Assembly (NCBI GenBank): GCA_035084275.1
Contig: CM068755.1
Location: forward strand, 9,486,001 to 9,550,000
Length of the DNA: 64,000 nucleotides
Direction of reading: 5' to 3'
From: Hydrolagus colliei
Taxonomy: Eukaryota
Part shown: positions 4,241 to 46,700 of the stretch, piece by piece
How the letters are laid out: every line of letters starts with the position of its first letter
Position numbering within the stretch: the stretch's first letter is position 1
Program-made: the position numbers and the translations under genes
The notes under the pieces: generated by a model
The model's input: the letters and a program-made list of their open reading frames with translations, nothing else
Databases searched by the model: none
Told to the model about the DNA's origin: nothing

Positions 4241-4246
4241 TTTATT
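4241..4246 (-). promoter_or_regulatory. Candidate AATAAA polyadenylation signal (the 3' UTR may extend further, towards about 3000)
   Basis: Plus-strand tttatt about 370 nt after the stop; usage not verifiable from sequence. Confidence 0.3.
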
Positions 4247-4570
4247 CATTCTTGGGATGCCCACAGTTTTGTTGCCCCATTATCCTACACCACTCCAACA
4301 CTAGAGACTCGAAATCTCTTCAAACCTATTTCCGTATATTAACTTATTTTCCTGTACAGAAGGCATGTTGTCTAGCCCTACACATGCTCTATAAACTTCC
4401 CTGATATATATTTAGTGCATGCAAGGCTCGGGAACACGGGAAGCTATCATAATCTACGCTACAATCTATAAAACTGAATAAATTCAAGACTACGCAACCG
4501 TGTATACTTCCATTACATACAATTCAATAAGATTTCTAAATAGATGTGGCTCAAATTATTGAAGTACTTA

Positions 4571-4585
4571 GATATGTTTGATACA
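4571..4585 (-). promoter_or_regulatory. Extended miR-190-5p target site in the tln2 3' UTR
   Basis: Plus strand 4571-4583 GATATGTTTGATA equals miR-190 nt 2-14, so the mRNA is complementary. Nt 15 is a G:U pair and nt 16 pairs. Confidence 0.6.
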
Positions 4586-4612
4586 GAACTAGCTTGGTAC
4601 AAAAAGTTGTTT

Positions 4613-4741
4613 TTAGGTTTCATCTTCCCGTAGTTCTGATGGTAGAAATTTATACTGCTGCTGGCGAATCTGCGCTAACTTCTTACGGGCTTCCTCCAAT
4701 TCCTTCTCTTTTCTCAGCATTTCCTCTTGTGCGGCAATGAT
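4613..4741 (-). CDS. tln2: tln2 coding exon 56 (last; stop TAA at 4613-4615)
   Basis: [42 protein letters not shown]; 129 nt. Confidence 0.95.
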   Translation of the reverse strand: MIAAQEEMLRKEKELEEARKKLAQIRQQQYKFLPSELREDET

Positions 4742-7700
4742 CTGCACAAAGAGTAACGTTGATCTGTTAACTTACCTCTACACGTTAAAAAGTTGCAAGC
4801 AAAGTCAACATATAATCTGAGCACTGTCCTGTGAAGCTCAATCTTCATCATTCTCCATGTATTATAAAAGGACACACACACTCAAGTCAACTAGGAACAT
4901 ATTATTTTATACAGGTGAAACAGAATAGTTGGATTGAATAGTCATAATACTGAGTACAGAGGTGACACATTTATTAACAATAATTTCCATTGATTTTTAT
5001 GTTGGATAGGATTGTAACTTGTGACCCACAAGATGGAAAAAAGGACTCCGCATGGAACTTGTATTCCATTCTACCGGCTATCAGCAAATATTCCATCTGG
5101 TTATCTGTTGGCACTACAGTACACTGTGTTCCATACTTGCAAATACACTGCATGAACAATGATGTAATGCAACAAAAATGAGAGCGGTGTGGAGGCTGTG
5201 AATGGTAATGCATGTATTTAAGTTCCAATTCACTGCATCAATCGCAGAATAATATTTAAGGCAATCATTTTATAAGTGGGATTGAATGCACATCTTAAAT
5301 CTATGCAGATATCACCACTGAAACAGGAAACCATTTGATTGAAAGATTTCAAGTTGAAATTTGCACAAACAGTTACAATAAGAAGGTGCATTTATAACGC
5401 CCTCCACGCCGGGCGGTGTCTGTGCGGTTCACAATGGCGGAGCCCGAAGCCGAGCCTGGGGGAGTGGTATGATGACCGTAAGCGCGGTCGAAGAGAAAGG
5501 TCTTCAGACACGACCTGAAGATGCACATTAAGTACAAACAAACCAATTCAAGATATGATAGCTTATGAGAGGGTCCCAAACTGTTTCATTGATTACACAC
5601 GCACACACACTACAAACCTGAGCAATTCCTCCGACAAATCGTGTTTTGACCACAACATTTTCTTCATCGTGTTTGTCAAATGCTGCCTTTTGAGCTGCTC
5701 TGACCAGATTGTCTGATGCCCGTTTGACAGCGTTTCCTGCAGTCTAGGAAAAAAATACACATAAATTTGAACTCGCACTATTTCTCCTGTGAATAAAAAC
5801 ATCCAGTATTTGTTTGTTTTGAATTAAGGAGAGTAAAAAGGAAGTTAATGTCAGATAACACTGGAGTGACTCATTGGTCGTGGAATTCTATTCCAATTCT
5901 GAGGCAAATTTTGAAATGCTAAAATAACACATATTATTAATATGTAGTCTGGCAGCCTCCTGTGACTTAGAACTAATTATGAAGTCTGAAAGTAGGTGAC
6001 ATAAACGAGGAACGTGTCAGAAATGTGTTAATTAAGGATTTTCAGGCTCAAACTTCAATACAGTCTTAGCCTTGGTTACTGTCTTAAAGTTTTGGTTTGT
6101 GCAGAATTGTAGCAGATTCGATATTTCAGAATTCATATGGGAGCCAATTTCTGCAATTCTTAAATGAACTGCAGAACACCAACTTCAAAATGAAAATTCA
6201 AAATAAGAATTTGGAAAATTCTTCACAATCTGATTTATGGTTAAAGCTGAGTGGAATTTCAGGTACTTGATGCTCATGTAGGTATTTTGTTTCTCCCAAT
6301 CTAGGCAGTGAAAGAGGATAAAGAATAATGTAGATTTCACAGGATATAGCATTTGAATTAATTGGGCATATTTTTAGGTTTACAAAGAGGTGAAAGAAAA
6401 TGGAATTAAAATGGATCGGTTGAAGGAAAGCACAGGGTTAAACAAAACCACAAGATTGCACACAAGCTGTTTGAGCAAACAGAGTTTGAGAGTCATTTCA
6501 AATGTTGTTGAAGCTCCTCCTAGTGATGGAAAATAATTGAACATTGGGGAAAGTTGATCTCTCTGTCCCAATTACTGACAGTGCTGAACTTGGGGAGGGA
6601 ATACAGCACAAGAAAATTATACCACACAAATACAAAAGCCTTTGAGACATTTCGAAGATAAAACGGGCTCTCTATCAATGACAGGATATCATTATTACAA
6701 ATAAAATTCTAGTGTGATCTTTACACTTCTAAACTAGATGTACGGCTTAGGCCGAAGAATGATGGTGGCTGACTAGCACAAGGTTAGCCGATCTAATCAA
6801 TCCCTGGCTAAACGGGCACAACAATAACGGCATGACTGATCGAATAATATGTTTACCTGCAGCCTCCTCATAGCTTCTGAATCTTGGTCTGCTTTCACTT
6901 TGCAAGCTACGAGGAGCTGTGCAGTGGATGCTGCCACTTGTTTGGCTGACGATATGAGCTTCTCTTCACTGGCATGGCCCTGAACAGAAGCATTTGCTGC
7001 CTCGCATAGATTGCTTGTTGCAGCTGCCACCATTCGAGCCTGAAACAATAAGAGAACAACGAATAGGCTCATTCCAGACACTGAGATGCCAAATCATAAC
7101 TACAGACTGGCACCCAGGTACAGTATTTCAATTCTGTAAAAAGATTTATCAGCCCTGTCTGCCAGTCACAAAAAGCAGCTGCACAATAATTCAGGCATGT
7201 ACAAATTCCTTTCAGTGACCACCAGTATATATTTATGGTTTTGCTTCTAAACATCGTTTGGATTAAAAAGTGTTGTGCCTGTTTTAAGAAAAAACAATAA
7301 TTTTCAGTAGAAAGGTGGATTAAGCAGTAGGACCAGTAAATTAATTCCACCTTGAAAGCATTGGTATTGATAACTCGATTCAAACATCCGTACAAAAGTC
7401 ACATTTTATCATTTGCTTATTATAAAATTGGGATTGAAAAAAAAAGGGAATAATAGCTGTTCACTGAACCAACAGTCTTTTGAATGAAATTGTACTCTAG
7501 GAATTTCAACACTGAAGCAATGGATAGATAACAACAAAATTACATTTATAGAGCACGTTTCACCTCTGGAGGATGTAGATAATTCTCTTCAGCAGACAGC
7601 CTAGGCCAGAGATTCAAAAAGTCACCCAAAGGGAAATTGGGATAAACTTTTCATCATGGATTATATTAACTAATAAGAATACTTGCATTTGATATGGCAC

Positions 7701-10700
7701 TTTCCAAGTCTTCTAGACATCTCAAAGTACTTCACAGAATATACTGCAAAGCAAATTGACTTTATATTATGTGGGCAAAACGTGGCAGCCAATTGAGCAC
7801 AGCAGTGTCCCACAAACAGATGTGGATTGAAATGACCAATTTACTGTTTTTTTGAGGGATTATTATCAGGCGTGTGGAATAAAGAAACTTGCTCAAGGTT
7901 TCGCCCGGCCTGAAATCAAACCCAGCTCTCTTGCTTGCAAGGCAGTGATCTAACCACTGAGCTACAGGATTCCACAAAATATCAATTGAAAGACACCCAC
8001 TGCAAAGGATGGAATAATATCGTTTACAATGATATTGTAGAAAGATACCTACTGCAGATATAAGTCCTTGAGACCACTGTCCATCATCTACTGCATTAGC
8101 CAGGATAGCTCCAACCTGTATTAAGAAGATGTGGTGAGAAGTTAAGGCACTAAAATACAACAAATACTAGATCAATAAATATACAAAAATAAGCACTTCT
8201 CGCCAACAAAGAATGCTCACCTTTCCTTGTGCAACAAGCTCTCGCTGGGCTGCTGAAGCAGACTTGACCAGTGCACTGGTAGCAGCTGCAATGGACTTGG
8301 CGGCCTCCAAAATCTGCTCCTCAAAGTTGAGGGTCTCGTCTGCTTGCTACAGGGAAAGCACAATACAGTGTTACAGCGAAATACCGTAAAATCTGTGTGA
8401 ATTACATAAAACCAGATAATTATGTGAAGGAGCATTCTATCCCTGCCCCCACCCCCTCGCCCCATTTACATTGCTCCAGCGACCACCCACACACAAAAAA
8501 AATTCTCAAAGCACAATTTTATTCATCAAGTATTCCAATTAAGGAAAAAAAAAGTAATTAGTCCTGCTCAATAGTGTGTTTTATTTCAAAGACAAACTTT
8601 ATACAACTAAAATCTGGTGTTGATTCTTTTTAAAGAGAATTGCTCCACACACAAAAAACAGTCACCAATTACTTTTTTCTTTAAGAAGCAAGACCACTAT
8701 GGATGTGTTTTATTCAACATATCGCCTCCCCCCTCCCTCCCCAACCCCCCCAAAAAAAATCACAATGAATGTCCATTTTGCCCATGAAAAATTTTGAACC
8801 CCGGAGACAGGGCAGGACACTATAGGAATATGTTTGATATATAGTTGGCTTTAATAACAACCTAATATATCAAACATATCACACAGAGTCTTGCAAGACA
8901 GGCATCCAGGTTTGATTCAGCTTCAAAGAACACAGTAGTACATGCAACTAAGCACTAACAAGACACCAATGACTGCGAGCAACTTAATTCACTGTGGTGG
9001 CTGAATAGAGAAACTCTTTGGATACTTGAACTAAACTTCTGATTGACACTTAAGATAAATCATGTTTATTCAGAAACTACAATAACTTTCATTTGTGTAA
9101 AACCCCAGAGCGCTTGTTTAGAAACATCAAACATCAAAATGTACACTAATCTTTGGTAGTATAAATTGGCAGCTAGTCATCTACCAGAGAATTAGCCCTT
9201 ACCCTTGGCTTAGCCCTCGGCTTAAGCTGTTCCAATTTCTTGGCTGCAGCTTCGATAGACGCTGCAGCTCCCAGAAGCTCAGCTTCAGCAATGACCGTTG
9301 GGTCTTCAGGGTCCACCCATTCTGTGCCTGAGCAAATGAGAACATTCACTATAACCTCTCCGCCAATGTGTACATTTGTAGCAAGCATTTTAAAAATATA
9401 TGAATAACATTTTTAATAAAATTGAGTTTTTTGTAACTGGAAGCGAATAATATCTTAAAATGTTTTTGTTTTTTGAAGTGTACAGTATTTCCTTTGATAA
9501 AGTTCATGAACCTTGTGATTAATTTAGAATCGCAAAAGGCTATAGTTATTATAACAGTTGCATTTGAAATTACACCTTTCATGTCATATGGGTGTCTTAT
9601 AGTTTCACAGGTTTTGACTGTAAAATGTGCAGCGGCTGTATTTTATCATAATACAGGTAATAATAATCCTTGCATTTGCATTCACATCTTCTAGACGTCT
9701 CAAAGCGCTTCACAGAATATACCGTAAAGTGAATTCAGTGTATGTTTTGTGATCGAAATGCGGCAGCCAATTGCACACAGCAATATCCCACAGTTGTGGA
9801 TTGAGTGAACAATCTATACATTTTTTAGGAGGGATTATTATTAGGCATGTGGAGTAAGGAAATTTGCCCAAGGTTTGCCCTGCTTGGAATCGAAACCAGG
9901 TCTCTCATTTGCAAGGTGGGTTCTCTAACCACTAAGCTACAGGACTTCGAATTAGAAGAACGCAGTGGTCAATTTGAGTGGCCAATTTTATTTGGGGGTA
10001 TTAGCCATGAGGCTGGGAGTAACTTGTGCCAGGGGATACTTAACGTCCACCTGAGCAGGTGGACTGGACCTTGGTTTAATGTAGATTAATACAATAACTC
10101 CCAGCCGTGTATTACAGTATCAGCCTAGACTATGCGTCTTACCTTCTAACTCGGGTTGTGAGAGTGCAACTAACTGCGCCAGCCTGAAACCTAAATTATC
10201 CGTAAACTGGTTTATCGCATTAAAGCTGCTAATCTCTGATTTAAGATGCTTACGGCTAATGATTCTCCCAAAGTATGATTAAACAATCTTTATTTCTCTT
10301 TACAACAGAATAGACGCTTAGAAATGATGTACAAGAGCATCATGCAAAAAGACATTTCCACATATTCTTCCAAAATCTCAAAAATTTTGGAATCTCACAC
10401 TTCACTCAGAGGCCAGATATTAGAAACACTTGAGTTCACTGTAATGACAGAGATCAATCTTAGAAGCAATTGCGATTTGTTTGGATTTAACAAACGTTGG
10501 ATTGGGCAAAACTAAAATATTTAATGTGGATTATTTTCTCGCTTCCAAATGCAAGGACCAAAATTGTACAAAAATGATCCAAGAGCCAAAATGGAATAAT
10601 TGGAACAGATTTTTTTTGTCTGATATTTAGACTACGGGGGGCTTTGTTTAATTATTCTATTTCAGAACACAAATGATCATTGAAGTGGAATGCTGTATAA

Positions 10701-22700: not shown

Positions 22701-25700
22701 AAGGTAAATCCTGGATTTTAATCTCGCAACTTCCCCACAGAGGGAAACTGGGTTATTAGGGGGCTCTGAGCTCAACTGAAGCACTTACCCATAGAGGGCC
22801 AGTTTGCCCCATCTGCTCTTGTGCCATTCCAACATCCACACAGAAGGCACTGGCAGAGATGGAAGCAGGGTGCCCAAATATATATCCAGTCAACACACGG
22901 CAACTGCAAAGTACAGAAGCACACGCAACGTGGACCCTAACCAGTCACACAGCACTGCTTTCGTTATGTCAGTCTGATTTAATATACAGGGACAACCTGG
23001 CTGATTATACCGACAGCTTTGGGAGCATCTGTGGTGCTCCCCTTTTTTAAAAAAATCTCTACATCTGTGGAAAAGTGAGTGTGAGAACAGTGACAGAAAA
23101 AGCTTTTTTGATCCACTTTTAGCTTCTCTGCAGTTCAATCCTTTCAGCATCTCCTGCTTAAACACTGCAGTGAAATGTAGGACTGTACTATGAACAAACA
23201 GATGTGAATCAAAAGTGACAGAATTTTTTTTCTGGATCATACAAAGCCAACCAATTTGGCTGCTTTTCTACCCTCATCATCCCTCCAAGGTGATCTGCTA
23301 CCAGGCCTCTAACAATGTCATTCATTCAGGTGGCCTCGGTGTGGGGGTGAGCATGGGGGGGGGGGGGGGTGGTAGCTGACAGATCCTAGGAATGATTTTC
23401 CTTCCAACAACATCTCCTCCCCCACAATGATTAGACCCAATCATGCCTATCAGTGGAGTCAAGATTACAATCTGTGGAATGATGAGAAGAATCAAACCTG
23501 TGCCCATAAATCTTGTGGCCCTATGATGTGTCACCTTATCAAAGCAATGCGTAACCAGATCAACTTAACTAATTGTTTCAATGTTGGGCTGCACCCAGTT
23601 ATTTGTATAATCAAAGCCAAGCAGTAAATAAATTGGTTTATAATAATAATAATCCTTGTATTTTGATATAGCACTTTTCACATCTTCTGGACGTCTCCAA
23701 GCGCTTCAAAGAATATACTGTAAAGTGAATTGACTGTATATTTGTGGGCGAAATGCAGTGCCCAGCAGGTCCCACAAACAGTCGTGGATTGAAATGACCA
23801 ATTATATTATTGTATTTTTCTGAGGGATTATTATTAGGCGTGTGGAATAAGGAAACTTGCCCAACGATTCGCCCTGACCTGCCTGGATTCGAACACAGGT
23901 CTCACGCTTGTAAGACGAGTGCTCTAATCACCGAGCTACCAGATTCTACAGTTTGAATTAAGACTTGTATGTTTTCAACAATTACTTTGCAATCCTTTTG
24001 CTCATTATCTCCATGCACTTTACCTTGGGGTTGCCACCGCCTTCCTTAGCAGCATAGAGCATTTGCAACGCAGACTCGGCCAGAGTCTTTGTCTGGTCCA
24101 ATACAGTCATTTGCTGCCGGTGGTCAAGCAGTTTCGAGGCAACACCAATGGAGGCCAGAGTTAAGGGTTCAAAGTAACTGGCCAGTTGAGTAACCTGCAT
24201 TGACAGGGGGAGAATTGTGTGGGGTTTTTTTTAAACAAGAAAAAAAGTTCCAAAAGGAAAATCATTGTCTTGTAAAAGATTTGCAGTTAAATATTCAGGA
24301 TGGTGTTCCTGCACCTTGTGACCCAGCTGTGCAGCTTCTCCGCGAGCCGCTGTGGTTATTGGGTCAATCAGGTGTCCTATCTCTTGTACTGTTGAGGTCA
24401 TCTGTTCCTGCAAAGCCTGATGGAGACAGAGACAGAGAATAAAAAGTGTTGACATTAAAAAGAATCCTTGCATTCAATGTAGCTCCTTATCACATCAAAG
24501 CGCGCCACAGAATATACTGTAACGCGAATTGACTGTATTTTGAAGATGAAACTGAGCACTTTTTTTAAAAAAAAGCACCAGGCATTTACGGTGAGCATTT
24601 AAGTGATGCTTAATTTGATCTTTACTGGAGGCTGGATCCTCACAATGGAAGGAGGGTGTTCAGGTTTAATTAATTGCTTAATGAGCTAAAATATAGGTCA
24701 CCATTGACACCACTGGGTACTGTATGTAAGATGCTCACTAGTGAATGAAGGATCATCTATTAGTCACTGTAACTGCATTTTACAGCTTTTCTTTAAATGA
24801 TAGGAAACTACAATAGGATCTTGATGCATTTACTCAGATTTTAAGATGGTTATGTAACCACATATACAGTATTGTATATAAATATTTTACCTCCAGTGAA
24901 ATGTCATCTCGTGTGGCAAGGTTCTGACTGACAGCTGCTAAAGAAGCTTGCTCAATCTCACGAATGCACCTATTAATATTGTCAATCGAGTAGTCACATT
25001 CTCGTTGTCCTGGAGCTTTATCCCTTGAAAAGGAAAGAAACTTAAATAAAAGCAACAAATCACATACGCATTTTTGTAATTTAAAAAGAGAAAAACTGGT
25101 CCTAGGATAAAACATCAACTTGATTGGTCAGATAGTCTGGGTCCTGGGCACGCATCCAGTCAGCAAAGGTGCAAGCAATCGTTTAATCCCACCACTGATA
25201 AGAAATATCTGGTGAGATGATTACCAAACAGAGAGATAATATTACATGAACATACCTGATAGAGGTTATAAGACTCTTAATAGAATCCGATACAGTGCGT
25301 GAATGACCAGCTAGAATAGACCATGTTGGTGGGTCCTTTGGATTAATGGCCAATGAACGGGCGGATCTGATCAGAGAGGATGAACTGTCCAGCATAGCTC
25401 GAGCAGCTGAGAGAATTGGCTCCTGAGCCTGAGCTCCCTTCAAAATAAACCGAATGGTTACAGCTCAACACAACATGAAATCTTAAAGATGCTTTCGAAC
25501 TCTATTGTAACTACGACCTGAATCTTCAGTTCAGTGAAACCATGTAATTAAAAAGCTTCATTGAAATGGGTCATAATATTATGAGAGTTTTGATTACAAA
25601 TTAGTAACACACCCACACAATGAAGAATGCCTTTTGCCCAAATGAACTCAATGATAGTAACCTTTCTAAATGCAATCTCCAGTTCCCATCAACACACAAT

Positions 25701-43700: not shown

Positions 43701-46700
43701 GGAGTAAATCTAATTCACACTGACTCTTTATTTCAAACAATTATTTTGAAAATAGTTCAGAAAAAAAAATCATGCTCAAATTACAAGTCCATTATAACAT
43801 GTTTCGTTATAATGCAATATGCTGATACCATGATTTGAGTGTGGACCCCGACATGCGAGCAGAAAAGCTGTCTACTCGCTTCAAATTGTGTTGTCTCGCT
43901 TCAAAAAGCCAGCTGGCTTTCCATCCATCTGCGCAGTGAATTCAGAAGGTCTCACCAGCAATTGGGCCCAGTTATGAGTGGGGTTAGGATTGTATGGACG
44001 CCAACTACCATTTGAAAATGGGATTCAACTGTGTTCTGGAAACATTTGACTCATCAGAATCTCATTAAGTGATGTATTTTCTTCCAACTCACCAGCTGTG
44101 AGATTGACAACAGATGCAGTCCCTGCAGTGATTGCATCGACCTGTGAGTGAATCTCATGTTTCGACTCATCAACTTTGTTTTGAACCCACACCTTAGATG
44201 CCTAAGAAAAATAGAGTACATAACAAACAGTTATGTAGTTACAGTTCAGTAGAGCAATACATAGTGATAACTGTCTACGAGAAAATTATGTGAGTTGGTG
44301 TAATGTTCAAATAACATTTTCCTCAAGCATTGGTCATTCTGAGAAGTTTACAAATTTTCAATTAAAAAACGTTTAGATTCATGATCTATACTTTAGATCA
44401 TGTTCTTATTTCTGACCTTTATTCAATAATACTTGTGCAACACGTAGGATGGAAAATTAACCTAATTAACCAAATCCAAGTGGACTCACCAGGTCGCGTC
44501 CCAGGGGAGGTAAATCATCAACTTTAGTTAGGTCGGACTGGGCTTGCTGTACTGCGTGCATACTGGAATTAATGGTCCCCATTAAAGCTTGCTGTGCAGA
44601 GGTCTGTTACACAGGGCAGATTGACAGGACAGGTTCAAATGAAAGCAATATCACTTTTTCATATGAAAGTAAAAATGCATTTTCATCACTTTAAATCCCG
44701 GAATCACTGAACAATTAAAGGCATATCAATCACTTTTGTTTTAAAAATGTGAAAAAAATCCAAATCCAGCAAGCAAAGAAAACATATAGGATTTCTACAA
44801 TATCTTGCCATACGCATATTTGGCATTTAGGCCCATTTTCAAAACATTAATTAATAGCTGGTTAACAACTAAATTAGACATTTTCAAAAATCAATGGTAT
44901 TAACCACTGCAAATATCCTTCCGTTAGTTAGAATTCCTCACCAGTGGAGGCATGTGACCTCTGTGCATTTGTCCACTGAGGATCTGTTGCTGAGGAGCGG
45001 GCATTGTTCCCATGTTAAAAATCTCTGGTCCACCTGCTCCGGGACGCATTACTGCTGGCAATGCAACAGAGGCATGCTCCACCTTCCCAGTCTTATTAAA
45101 CTGTTGCTGCAAAATTGTCGATCTGAGACAGGGAAGAAGTTATTAGTGTACCTATTGAGAAAGAGCTTAAAAAATGTGAGAGCTACCACCAGTGAATCAT
45201 GTTTTTCACCCCCAATATATGTCTTTATGAGTGAAGGCACTGCACTTTTCATGTCTTCTAGTGAATTCTAGTATATTTGTGAGGAAATATTTGCTGAATA
45301 AAGTTTTGTTTCATAAAGCTTTATACTGTACTAAATGACCCCAGTGTGCTTTTCAGACTTTTCTATTTAGGAGGTTAGCATTCAATAATAATAACAAACC
45401 ATGGAGTGATTAATTTTATTTGGGGGATTTCTGGCCCAAACCCTGGGAGAAACTCCCTTCTCTTTTTGAATAATGCCATTTCAGAATCAATTAGGTTTTT
45501 GGCATGGAACGATAGGTTTTAAGTACATTGCTGGGCACCAGATCAATAAAACAATTTTTTAAGTCACTTACATTCAAACTATGGATTACTTTATACACAT
45601 GAGCATCCATAAGATAACAGACATGCAAATGGACCCATATAGTATTTTCAATTCTCCAGATCCACCAACTTTTTGACTGTATACGAAATTATTGGACAAC
45701 TTCAAGAGAATTAAACAAAGTTAATGTGCAACCAGATACATCATTGGTATAGCTGTATTGAGCAACTTAATGCAGTATTTTAAATTGTGTTACTTTTTTG
45801 GAGAAACGGATTCTTCCAACATTGTTGATTCTTCATCTCCTTCGAGGCCAAATCGGTCTTTACTTTGTTTCTGCAAAAAGGTGAAAGGGTTTGCTAACAT
45901 TACAAAAAATAAGAAACCCTGAGCAGGATGAGAACCATATTCTGCGGGGGTATTAACATGCTTACAGTTACTCTTGATCAATAGAAGAACTATTTTTAAA
46001 TTTCAAATAAAGTTTGAAGTGAAATATAATAACAATAATCCTTGCATTTGATGTAGTGCCTTATCACTTCTCTGAGATATCTCAATGCACTTCACAGAAT
46101 ACACTGCAAAGTGAATTGACTGCATATTTTGGGCTGAAACATAGCAGCCAAATGCACAGCGCAGCATCCCACAAACAGTCATGGATTGAGTGATCCAATT
46201 ATATATATATATATTTTTAGGAATTGTTACCCCTCAGAAAAGTGATCCGACAATCAATTAACAACTCTGGTCCTACTTACTTTCAGGTAAACTGAGGCAT
46301 GTGTGTGGAGTAAAGAAACTTGCCCAATGTTTCGCCCTACCCGGGAATCGAACCCACGTCTCTCGCTTGTGAGGCGAGCGCTCTAATCACTGAGCTACAA
46401 GACTCCACTCCAATAAATGAAAGAAGGGGAATAACAAGCGATTTTCAGAACAATTCAGAGTACAAGATCTGCTAGAAATGTTCAGTTGAAATGTACAGTT
46501 TATTAAACAACTGTGCAATGGGGTTTGAAGAAATGTTGAAATGCCTCCAAAACACCCATAGAAGGGTAAAGTAACAGTAAACTAAGTAAAGCAATTCAGA
46601 TAAAATAACTTTTTATAGTAAATTTCTGTAACTTTATTCAGTAATAATAATGTTGAAGGCATTTTCATCAAAATTAAGTTTAAATTAACTGAGCTCACGG

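Follow-up and report, generated by a model that had tools for sequence, protein, structure and literature searches.

Does a microRNA (miRNA) that lies in an intron of a talin gene act on the message of its own host? The question is raised by a 64,000-nucleotide (nt) stretch of the genome of the chimaera Hydrolagus colliei (assembly GCA_035084275.1, contig CM068755.1, positions 9,486,001 to 9,550,000; hereafter the window, in whose coordinates all positions are given unless another contig is named), the minus strand of which carries most of the talin gene TLN2. One of its introns holds a mir-190 hairpin, and its 3' untranslated region (UTR) contains an unusually long complement to the mature miRNA shortly past the stop codon. 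On balance, we lean towards a reading in which miR-190 from the TLN2 transcript would bind this site and lower talin-2 by ordinary Argonaute repression, without cutting the message.

The talin gene, its intronic miRNA and the site past its stop codon

The features on which the argument depends are as follows.

8816..8890, minus strand: mir-190 precursor hairpin (Rfam RF00672, folding)
8860..8881, minus strand: miR-190-5p arm (family consensus, predicted ends)
8347..9202, minus strand: host intron, 856 nt, GT-AG (tblastn exons, splice sites)
4616..4741, minus strand: coding part of the last TLN2 exon (identity to Callorhinchus milii Talin 2b)
4613..4615, minus strand: TLN2 stop codon TAA (sequence)
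4571..4583, minus strand: target site, UTR +30 to +42, Watson-Crick complement of miRNA nt 2-14; seed part, 7mer-m8, at 4571-4577 (sequence)
4584..4592, minus strand: possible 3' extension that begins with a G:U (nt 15) and goes on with a single pair or else with a 3-nt bulge and five pairs at nt 16-20 (duplex folding, predicted)
4241..4246, minus strand: first AATAAA past the stop, UTR +367, candidate polyadenylation (poly(A)) signal (sequence)

The identity of the host is clear. Its F3-domain exon scores 61.3 bits against Talin-2 in the PDB and 56.5 against Talin-1, and its last exon is identical to the C. milii proteins named Talin 2b, which rules out TLN1 and bears out the original prediction that the gene is tln2. 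The Rfam match to mir-190, at 8890-8816, scores 84.1 bits (E 1.7e-15) against a gathering score of 48 for the family, and the precursor is predicted to fold as a single hairpin of -32.0 kcal/mol. Gene and hairpin are both on the minus strand, so that the hairpin lies in sense within the TLN2 intron 9202-8347. The limits of this intron were taken from the flanking exons, located with tblastn, and from the splice sites, whereas the ends of miR-190-5p (8881-8860) come from the earlier annotation and the family consensus and are thus predicted. At 856 nt the intron is short compared with about 12.9 kb in human (PMC4880290; what is said here of papers cited by PMC number refers to those parts of them that were available), and its designation as intron 51 is a label from mouse and human papers (PMC2702505, PMC3091682), not an exon count of chimaera TLN2.

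The UTR bases +30 to +42 (4583-4571) form unbroken Watson-Crick pairs with miR-190-5p nt 2-14. Beyond them nt 15 forms a G:U and nt 16 is paired, while nt 17-18 are unpaired in the same register. This is the pairing scheme originally proposed, and it stands, as do the coordinates of the 5p arm and of the UTR match, the distance of about 30 nt from the stop and the placing of the bond opposite nt 10-11 at 4579/4580. Since a U and not an A faces nt 1, the seed match (UTR +36 to +42, ahead of the first AATAAA) is of the 7mer-m8 and not the 8mer class. The best predicted duplex reaches -20.0 kcal/mol, with nt 2-15 paired, three target bases bulged and nt 16-20 paired; the unbulged form, paired over nt 2-16, is predicted at -18.7 kcal/mol. 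Sites of the 7mer-m8 class should be separated from the stop by more than about 15 nt and lie in AU-rich and accessible sequence, and the TLN2 site has all of these properties, its flanks being 68% AU and its predicted accessibility standing at the 88th percentile among UTR positions. With a sense intronic miRNA and a seed match to it in the host 3' UTR, the sequence has two of the features that host targeting calls for. Another near-match to nt 2-14, 13 nt long and with a G:U at nt 7, is found on the minus strand at 2863-2875; its distance from the stop is 1738 nt, which places it downstream of the first poly(A) signal.

In the reading that we favour, the TLN2 primary transcript would yield miR-190 by co-transcription, and Argonaute would then bind the accessible, AU-rich 7mer-m8 site in the UTR of the same gene. 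Talin-2 output would be lowered by deadenylation or translational inhibition, slicing being predicted to be slow, and the outcome may be a buffering of talin dosage. One transcription unit would thereby make both an mRNA and its repressor, which amounts to an incoherent feed-forward loop. The pairing of nt 9-14 is likely a lineage-restricted extension of the seed site that may add affinity, and this six-pair extension is compatible both with selection for a higher affinity and with luck in a draw from many sites.

Elsewhere in the introns of the window there are three weak Rfam matches to tRNA (30-39 bits; 9875-9946, 23875-23945 and 46341-46397), which are likely the heads of tRNA-derived short interspersed nuclear elements.

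Chance, conservation and the other talin genes

The alternative that survives best is that the match has no regulatory role at all, being an AU-rich 13-mer that arose by drift and was picked out by a scan over many genes and genomes. We regard this as unlikely, although it has to be taken seriously. Counting both strands of the 1.003-Gb genome, and the miRNA itself, there are 73 occurrences of the 13-mer, compared with 46 of its reversed control. Since 73 copies is near background, the 13-mer is not repeat-borne, and a repeat origin was discarded. The genome-wide rate of 3.6e-8 per position gives 1.4e-5 matches expected by chance per 390-nt UTR and 1.4e-4 per 4 kb. When each of the 59,243 sense 13-mers that precede the last exon is compared with the first 100 bases of the UTR, just one finds its complement there, namely miRNA nt 2-14, starting at nt 2; the corresponding counts are 3 with 400 bases, 6 with 1000 and 135 with 4000. 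A duplex energy of -20 kcal/mol was reached in none of 300 shuffled 400-nt UTRs, and the chance that a seed match grows from 7 to 13 pairs is 4e-4 per seed site. For the miR-190/TLN2 pair alone, the match is far beyond chance. Yet there are a few hundred intronic miRNA-host pairs to consider, if the human set in PMC3091682 is taken as the order of magnitude, and at 1e-5 to 1e-4 per pair such a match becomes, by our own estimate, roughly a 0.4-4% event per genome. A scan across many genomes will therefore meet some such matches by luck. The original judgement that the match is hard to attribute to chance holds for the single pair (1.4e-5 to 1.4e-4).

Conservation of the long site does little to strengthen the case against chance. 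Four sequencing runs from relatives (of 11 listed) were compared, of which three cover the site and one does not. The 13 bases are unchanged in all three, but the divergence is only about 1%, so that 13 unchanged bases are expected anyway and the comparison has no power; in one of these relatives, X6, 10 other letters differ over 932 nt. Outside the close relatives the long site was not found. Metagenome records supplied at least 16 talin loci (three of vertebrate type, L007, L008 and L009, and 13 of invertebrate type), while scans of the genome-contig and viral-contig collections contained none. The site is absent from all four other vertebrate talin loci, namely TLN1 of the same genome and L007, L008 and L009, in a comparison that was made without any shark or ray UTR, and also from the 13 invertebrate-type loci among the matches listed. 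Its peptide signature, sought in any register, was likewise seen in none of 19 read-through talin tails, which were drawn from 120 listed talin proteins, have C-termini that look teleost-like and, in 18 cases, extend past the matching position. Conservation across vertebrates had been proposed at the outset as a check, and in the loci compared its result is negative: the long site is missing in teleost-type and amniote-type TLN2, in both TLN1 loci and in the invertebrate-type loci.

The evidence that speaks against chance comes from the seed instead, because three other talin loci carry seed sites for miR-190, which makes a site in the TLN2 UTR expected for a functional reason. In addition, even an accidental 7mer-m8 in an accessible, AU-rich UTR would often be bound when the miRNA is co-expressed. 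TLN1 of the same genome has a canonical miR-190 8mer at UTR +636. The last exon of L007 equals that of a named teleost talin-2, and the locus shows an 8mer at +536; the amniote-type L008, whose last exon equals that of mouse talin-2, has a 7mer-m8 at +266 as well as an 8mer at +421. A canonical 8mer thus occurs within the first kilobase past the stop in three of the four other vertebrate talin loci, and four of the five, window TLN2 included, have seed sites past the stop. To assess significance, the first 1000 nt of each locus were put through 3000 dinucleotide shuffles, a span that was dictated by the shortest TLN2-type locus and chosen after the sites were known. The 8mer appears in 2-4% of the shuffles, and the probability of at least three loci in four is 8e-5 for the 8mer and 1e-3 for the 7mer-m8. 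Among 210 8mers of the same composition, the real one alone reaches three of the four loci, and on the antisense strand the 7mer occurs in none of the five. Moreover, the sole 10-mer common to at least three of the five vertebrate loci contains the full miR-190 8mer; its carriers are chimaera TLN1, L007 and L008, and the first two share 12 letters there. This common 10-mer may predate the TLN1/TLN2 duplication.

The TLN1 paralogue of the same genome was also seen to carry a mir-190 hairpin of its own (contig C1, 145878872-145878947, 58 bits). It lies in sense, in the intron between the equivalent exons, and its 5p arm has the same seed with two changes in the 3' half. With the TLN2 site, the pairing of the TLN1-hosted miRNA goes no further than nt 11.

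Besides the absence of the long site from other loci and from the read-through tails, a number of observations weigh against host targeting as we read it. The comparison comprises four loci only, and three of 210 7mers of the same composition also reach three of the four. L009, which resembles teleost TLN1, is without a miR-190 site in 1410 nt. Upstream of the sites in chimaera TLN1, L007 and L008 there is a poly(A)-like hexamer, so that these sites may be missing from short isoforms. BLASTN of the five vertebrate downstream regions gave no alignable UTR block, the only likeness being repeats shared between two loci of this genome, and since the flanks do not align, the 8mers are not shown by them to be orthologous. 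Window TLN2 itself is without the shared 8mer in 14.5 kb downstream, which means that the long site is not the conserved one. Among the matches listed, a seed site is lacking in 10 of the 13 invertebrate-type loci, and the remaining three (L011-L013, near-identical) have a 7mer-A1 only, at about UTR +292. In fly, the effect of a miR-190 sponge does not depend on the level of the rhea transcript (PMC9542781), and in human CLASH (sequencing of hybrids after crosslinking and ligation) data just 2 of 193 miRNAs targeted their hosts (PMC6049507). Taken with the 8mers in three of the four other talin loci, host targeting by miR-190 nevertheless looks like a wider jawed-vertebrate trait. The self-silencing loop first proposed for TLN2 therefore gains support from the 8mers of other talins, whereas the long site that had suggested it is absent from the distant ones compared.

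Slicing and the remaining alternatives

The length of the site raises the further possibility that AGO2 loaded with miR-190 cuts the TLN2 mRNA at 4579/4580, and that such self-slicing is the main form of control. The Watson-Crick pairs at nt 2-14 do span the scissile bond, nt 10-11 included, and the low chance of an extension from 7 to 13 pairs speaks for it as well. The enzyme is probably at hand. The sole stand-alone AGO gene on contig C2 matches human AGO2 best, and its PIWI exon (L043:3986-4186, C2) equals residues 614-679 of human AGO2 except for 2 of 66. All four catalytic motifs are kept, together with E637 and F666, which we take to be the two AGO2 positions changed in teleosts, so that chimaera AGO2 is likely slicing-competent. 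The loss of slicing by AGO2 arose in teleosts (PMC7765534). One of the two differences in the exon is a Phe for human Ala644, seven residues past the catalytic glutamate.

The pairing is less favourable than the enzyme. In human AGO2, pairing past nt 16 is dispensable only if nt 9-12 pair strongly (PMC11100590), and the TLN2 site offers neither strong pairing at nt 9-12 nor contiguous pairing past nt 16. The predicted stack of miR-190 nt 9-12 is -5.4 kcal/mol, the same as that of UUCA, against -9.1 for GCGG; with a UUCA guide, cutting of a 16-bp target was 250-fold slower even though the target was perfectly paired, and rates fall 8- to 64-fold when nt 17 is mismatched (PMC11100590). The TLN2 site falls below such a 16-bp target, having a G:U at nt 15 and then either a mismatch at nt 17 or a 3-nt bulge, although these kinetic rules derive from human AGO2 and other guides. 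Known sliced sites are, besides, conserved over mammals or vertebrates (PMC10772731), whereas the TLN2 site was not found outside chimaera relatives. Pairing at nt 10-11, on which the suggestion of cleavage had originally been founded, is necessary but not sufficient (PMC11100590); it is present here, but the weak nt 9-12, the G:U at nt 15 and the unpaired nt 17 leave the suggestion weakly supported. Efficient slicing of this site is unlikely to judge from its pairing, slicing as the main control is improbable, and repression probably works without cutting the message. Improbable too, and slightly more so, is a broader scheme in which feedback on talin by the miR-190 of its own intron would have begun before TLN1 and TLN2 split and the chimaera TLN2 site would have been upgraded to a centre-paired site cut by AGO2, one pre-mRNA yielding a guide against its own message. 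If true, feedback predating the split would help explain the long stay of mir-190 in the talin intron.

Two further explanations concern the origin of the site and the direction of its effect. Part of the hairpin, which lies 4.3 kb upstream, might have been copied into the UTR and then have decayed, with or without later use. With the 5p arm, taken inverted, the site does have 13 nt in common, and with the 3p arm, in direct orientation, 12 nt, but the likeness ends at the core: of 300 random flank pairs, 12-80% attained the flank scores, and the summed flank score was attained by 42% for the 3p arm and by 15% for the 5p arm, a comparison that has low power for an old copy. With flanks no more alike than random sequence, a copy of a hairpin arm was rejected, and we hold a templated origin to be very unlikely. 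Least credible of all is target-directed miRNA degradation (TDMD), whereby talin-2 mRNA would destroy its own miRNA and not the reverse: fly miR-190 is indeed degraded via a trigger in the wgn 3' UTR, and the best TLN2 duplex combines a paired seed with a bulge and some pairing at the 3' end, but such triggers require central mismatches together with more than seven consecutive 3'-end pairs, or nine consecutive ones (PMC10102002), and the shape is ruled out here by a fully paired centre, a bulge only after nt 15 and a 3' run of just five pairs (nt 16-20), nt 21-22 being free.

Relation to known systems

The presence of mir-190 in talin introns is well documented, in intron 51 of mouse and human TLN2 and in intron 14 of fly rhea (PMC2702505, PMC4880290; the location is also given in PMC3675212 and PMC3485561), and there are reports that fly rhea and mammalian Tln2 are co-expressed with the miRNA (PMC4880290, PMC3485561). 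In the available parts of these accounts the subject is co-expression, not host targeting, and among vertebrate talins mir-190 is placed only in TLN2. The chimaera differs from the reported hosts in that TLN2 and TLN1 both carry mir-190, each with a site past the stop. Neither host targeting of talin by miR-190 nor the TLN1 copy was found stated in the open literature searched, a scope that leaves aside subscription journals and the databases of target predictions and miRNA genes; the text supplements of PMC3091682, as far as they were available, list mir-190 in TLN2 with no self-target call there.

From insects to mammals mir-190 stays in a talin intron, and the available parts of the literature give no tested reason for it. 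The level of talin, an adhesion protein, has been described as tightly regulated (PMC3485561), and the seed sites in four of the five vertebrate talin loci suggest that mir-190 may have persisted there because it feeds back directly on talin dosage. Should a wider UTR alignment show nothing, the finding would shrink to a lineage-specific curiosity. The long chimaera site would also provide a natural test of the minimum pairing for AGO2 slicing.

Three kinds of known systems resemble the TLN2 site to different degrees. The same miRNA family acts in the TDMD trigger of wgn, which is also a 3' UTR site with more than seed pairing, but TDMD triggers combine a central mismatch with long pairing to the 3' end, and the TLN2 site has the opposite shape. 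Targets sliced by AGO2 in animals, such as those of miR-196 (HOXB8), miR-151-5p (N4BP1, ATPAF1 and LYPD3) and miR-671 (CDR1as) (PMC10772731), share with it the pairing of nt 10-11, and a slicing-type AGO2 is encoded in the chimaera genome. Such targets are, however, extensively complementary and conserved, whereas the TLN2 site has 13 contiguous pairs, a weak centre and broken 3' pairing. The closest likeness is to intronic miRNAs that target their hosts, a first-order negative feedback that predictions assign to about 20% of human intragenic miRNAs (PMC3091682) and that is exemplified by the CLASH pairs miR-615/HOXC4 and miR-93/MCM7 (PMC6049507), by fly miR-92/jigr1 (PMC4441384) and by miR-338/AATK (PMC3281898). 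In these as in TLN2, a sense intronic miRNA meets a seed site in the host 3' UTR and one unit gives rise to message and repressor, but their pairing ends at nt 8, whereas that of TLN2 reaches nt 14. Host-targeting intronic miRNAs and the place of mir-190 in talin introns are both known, and the TLN2 site is likely an added case of such self-repression, with a lineage-restricted extension.

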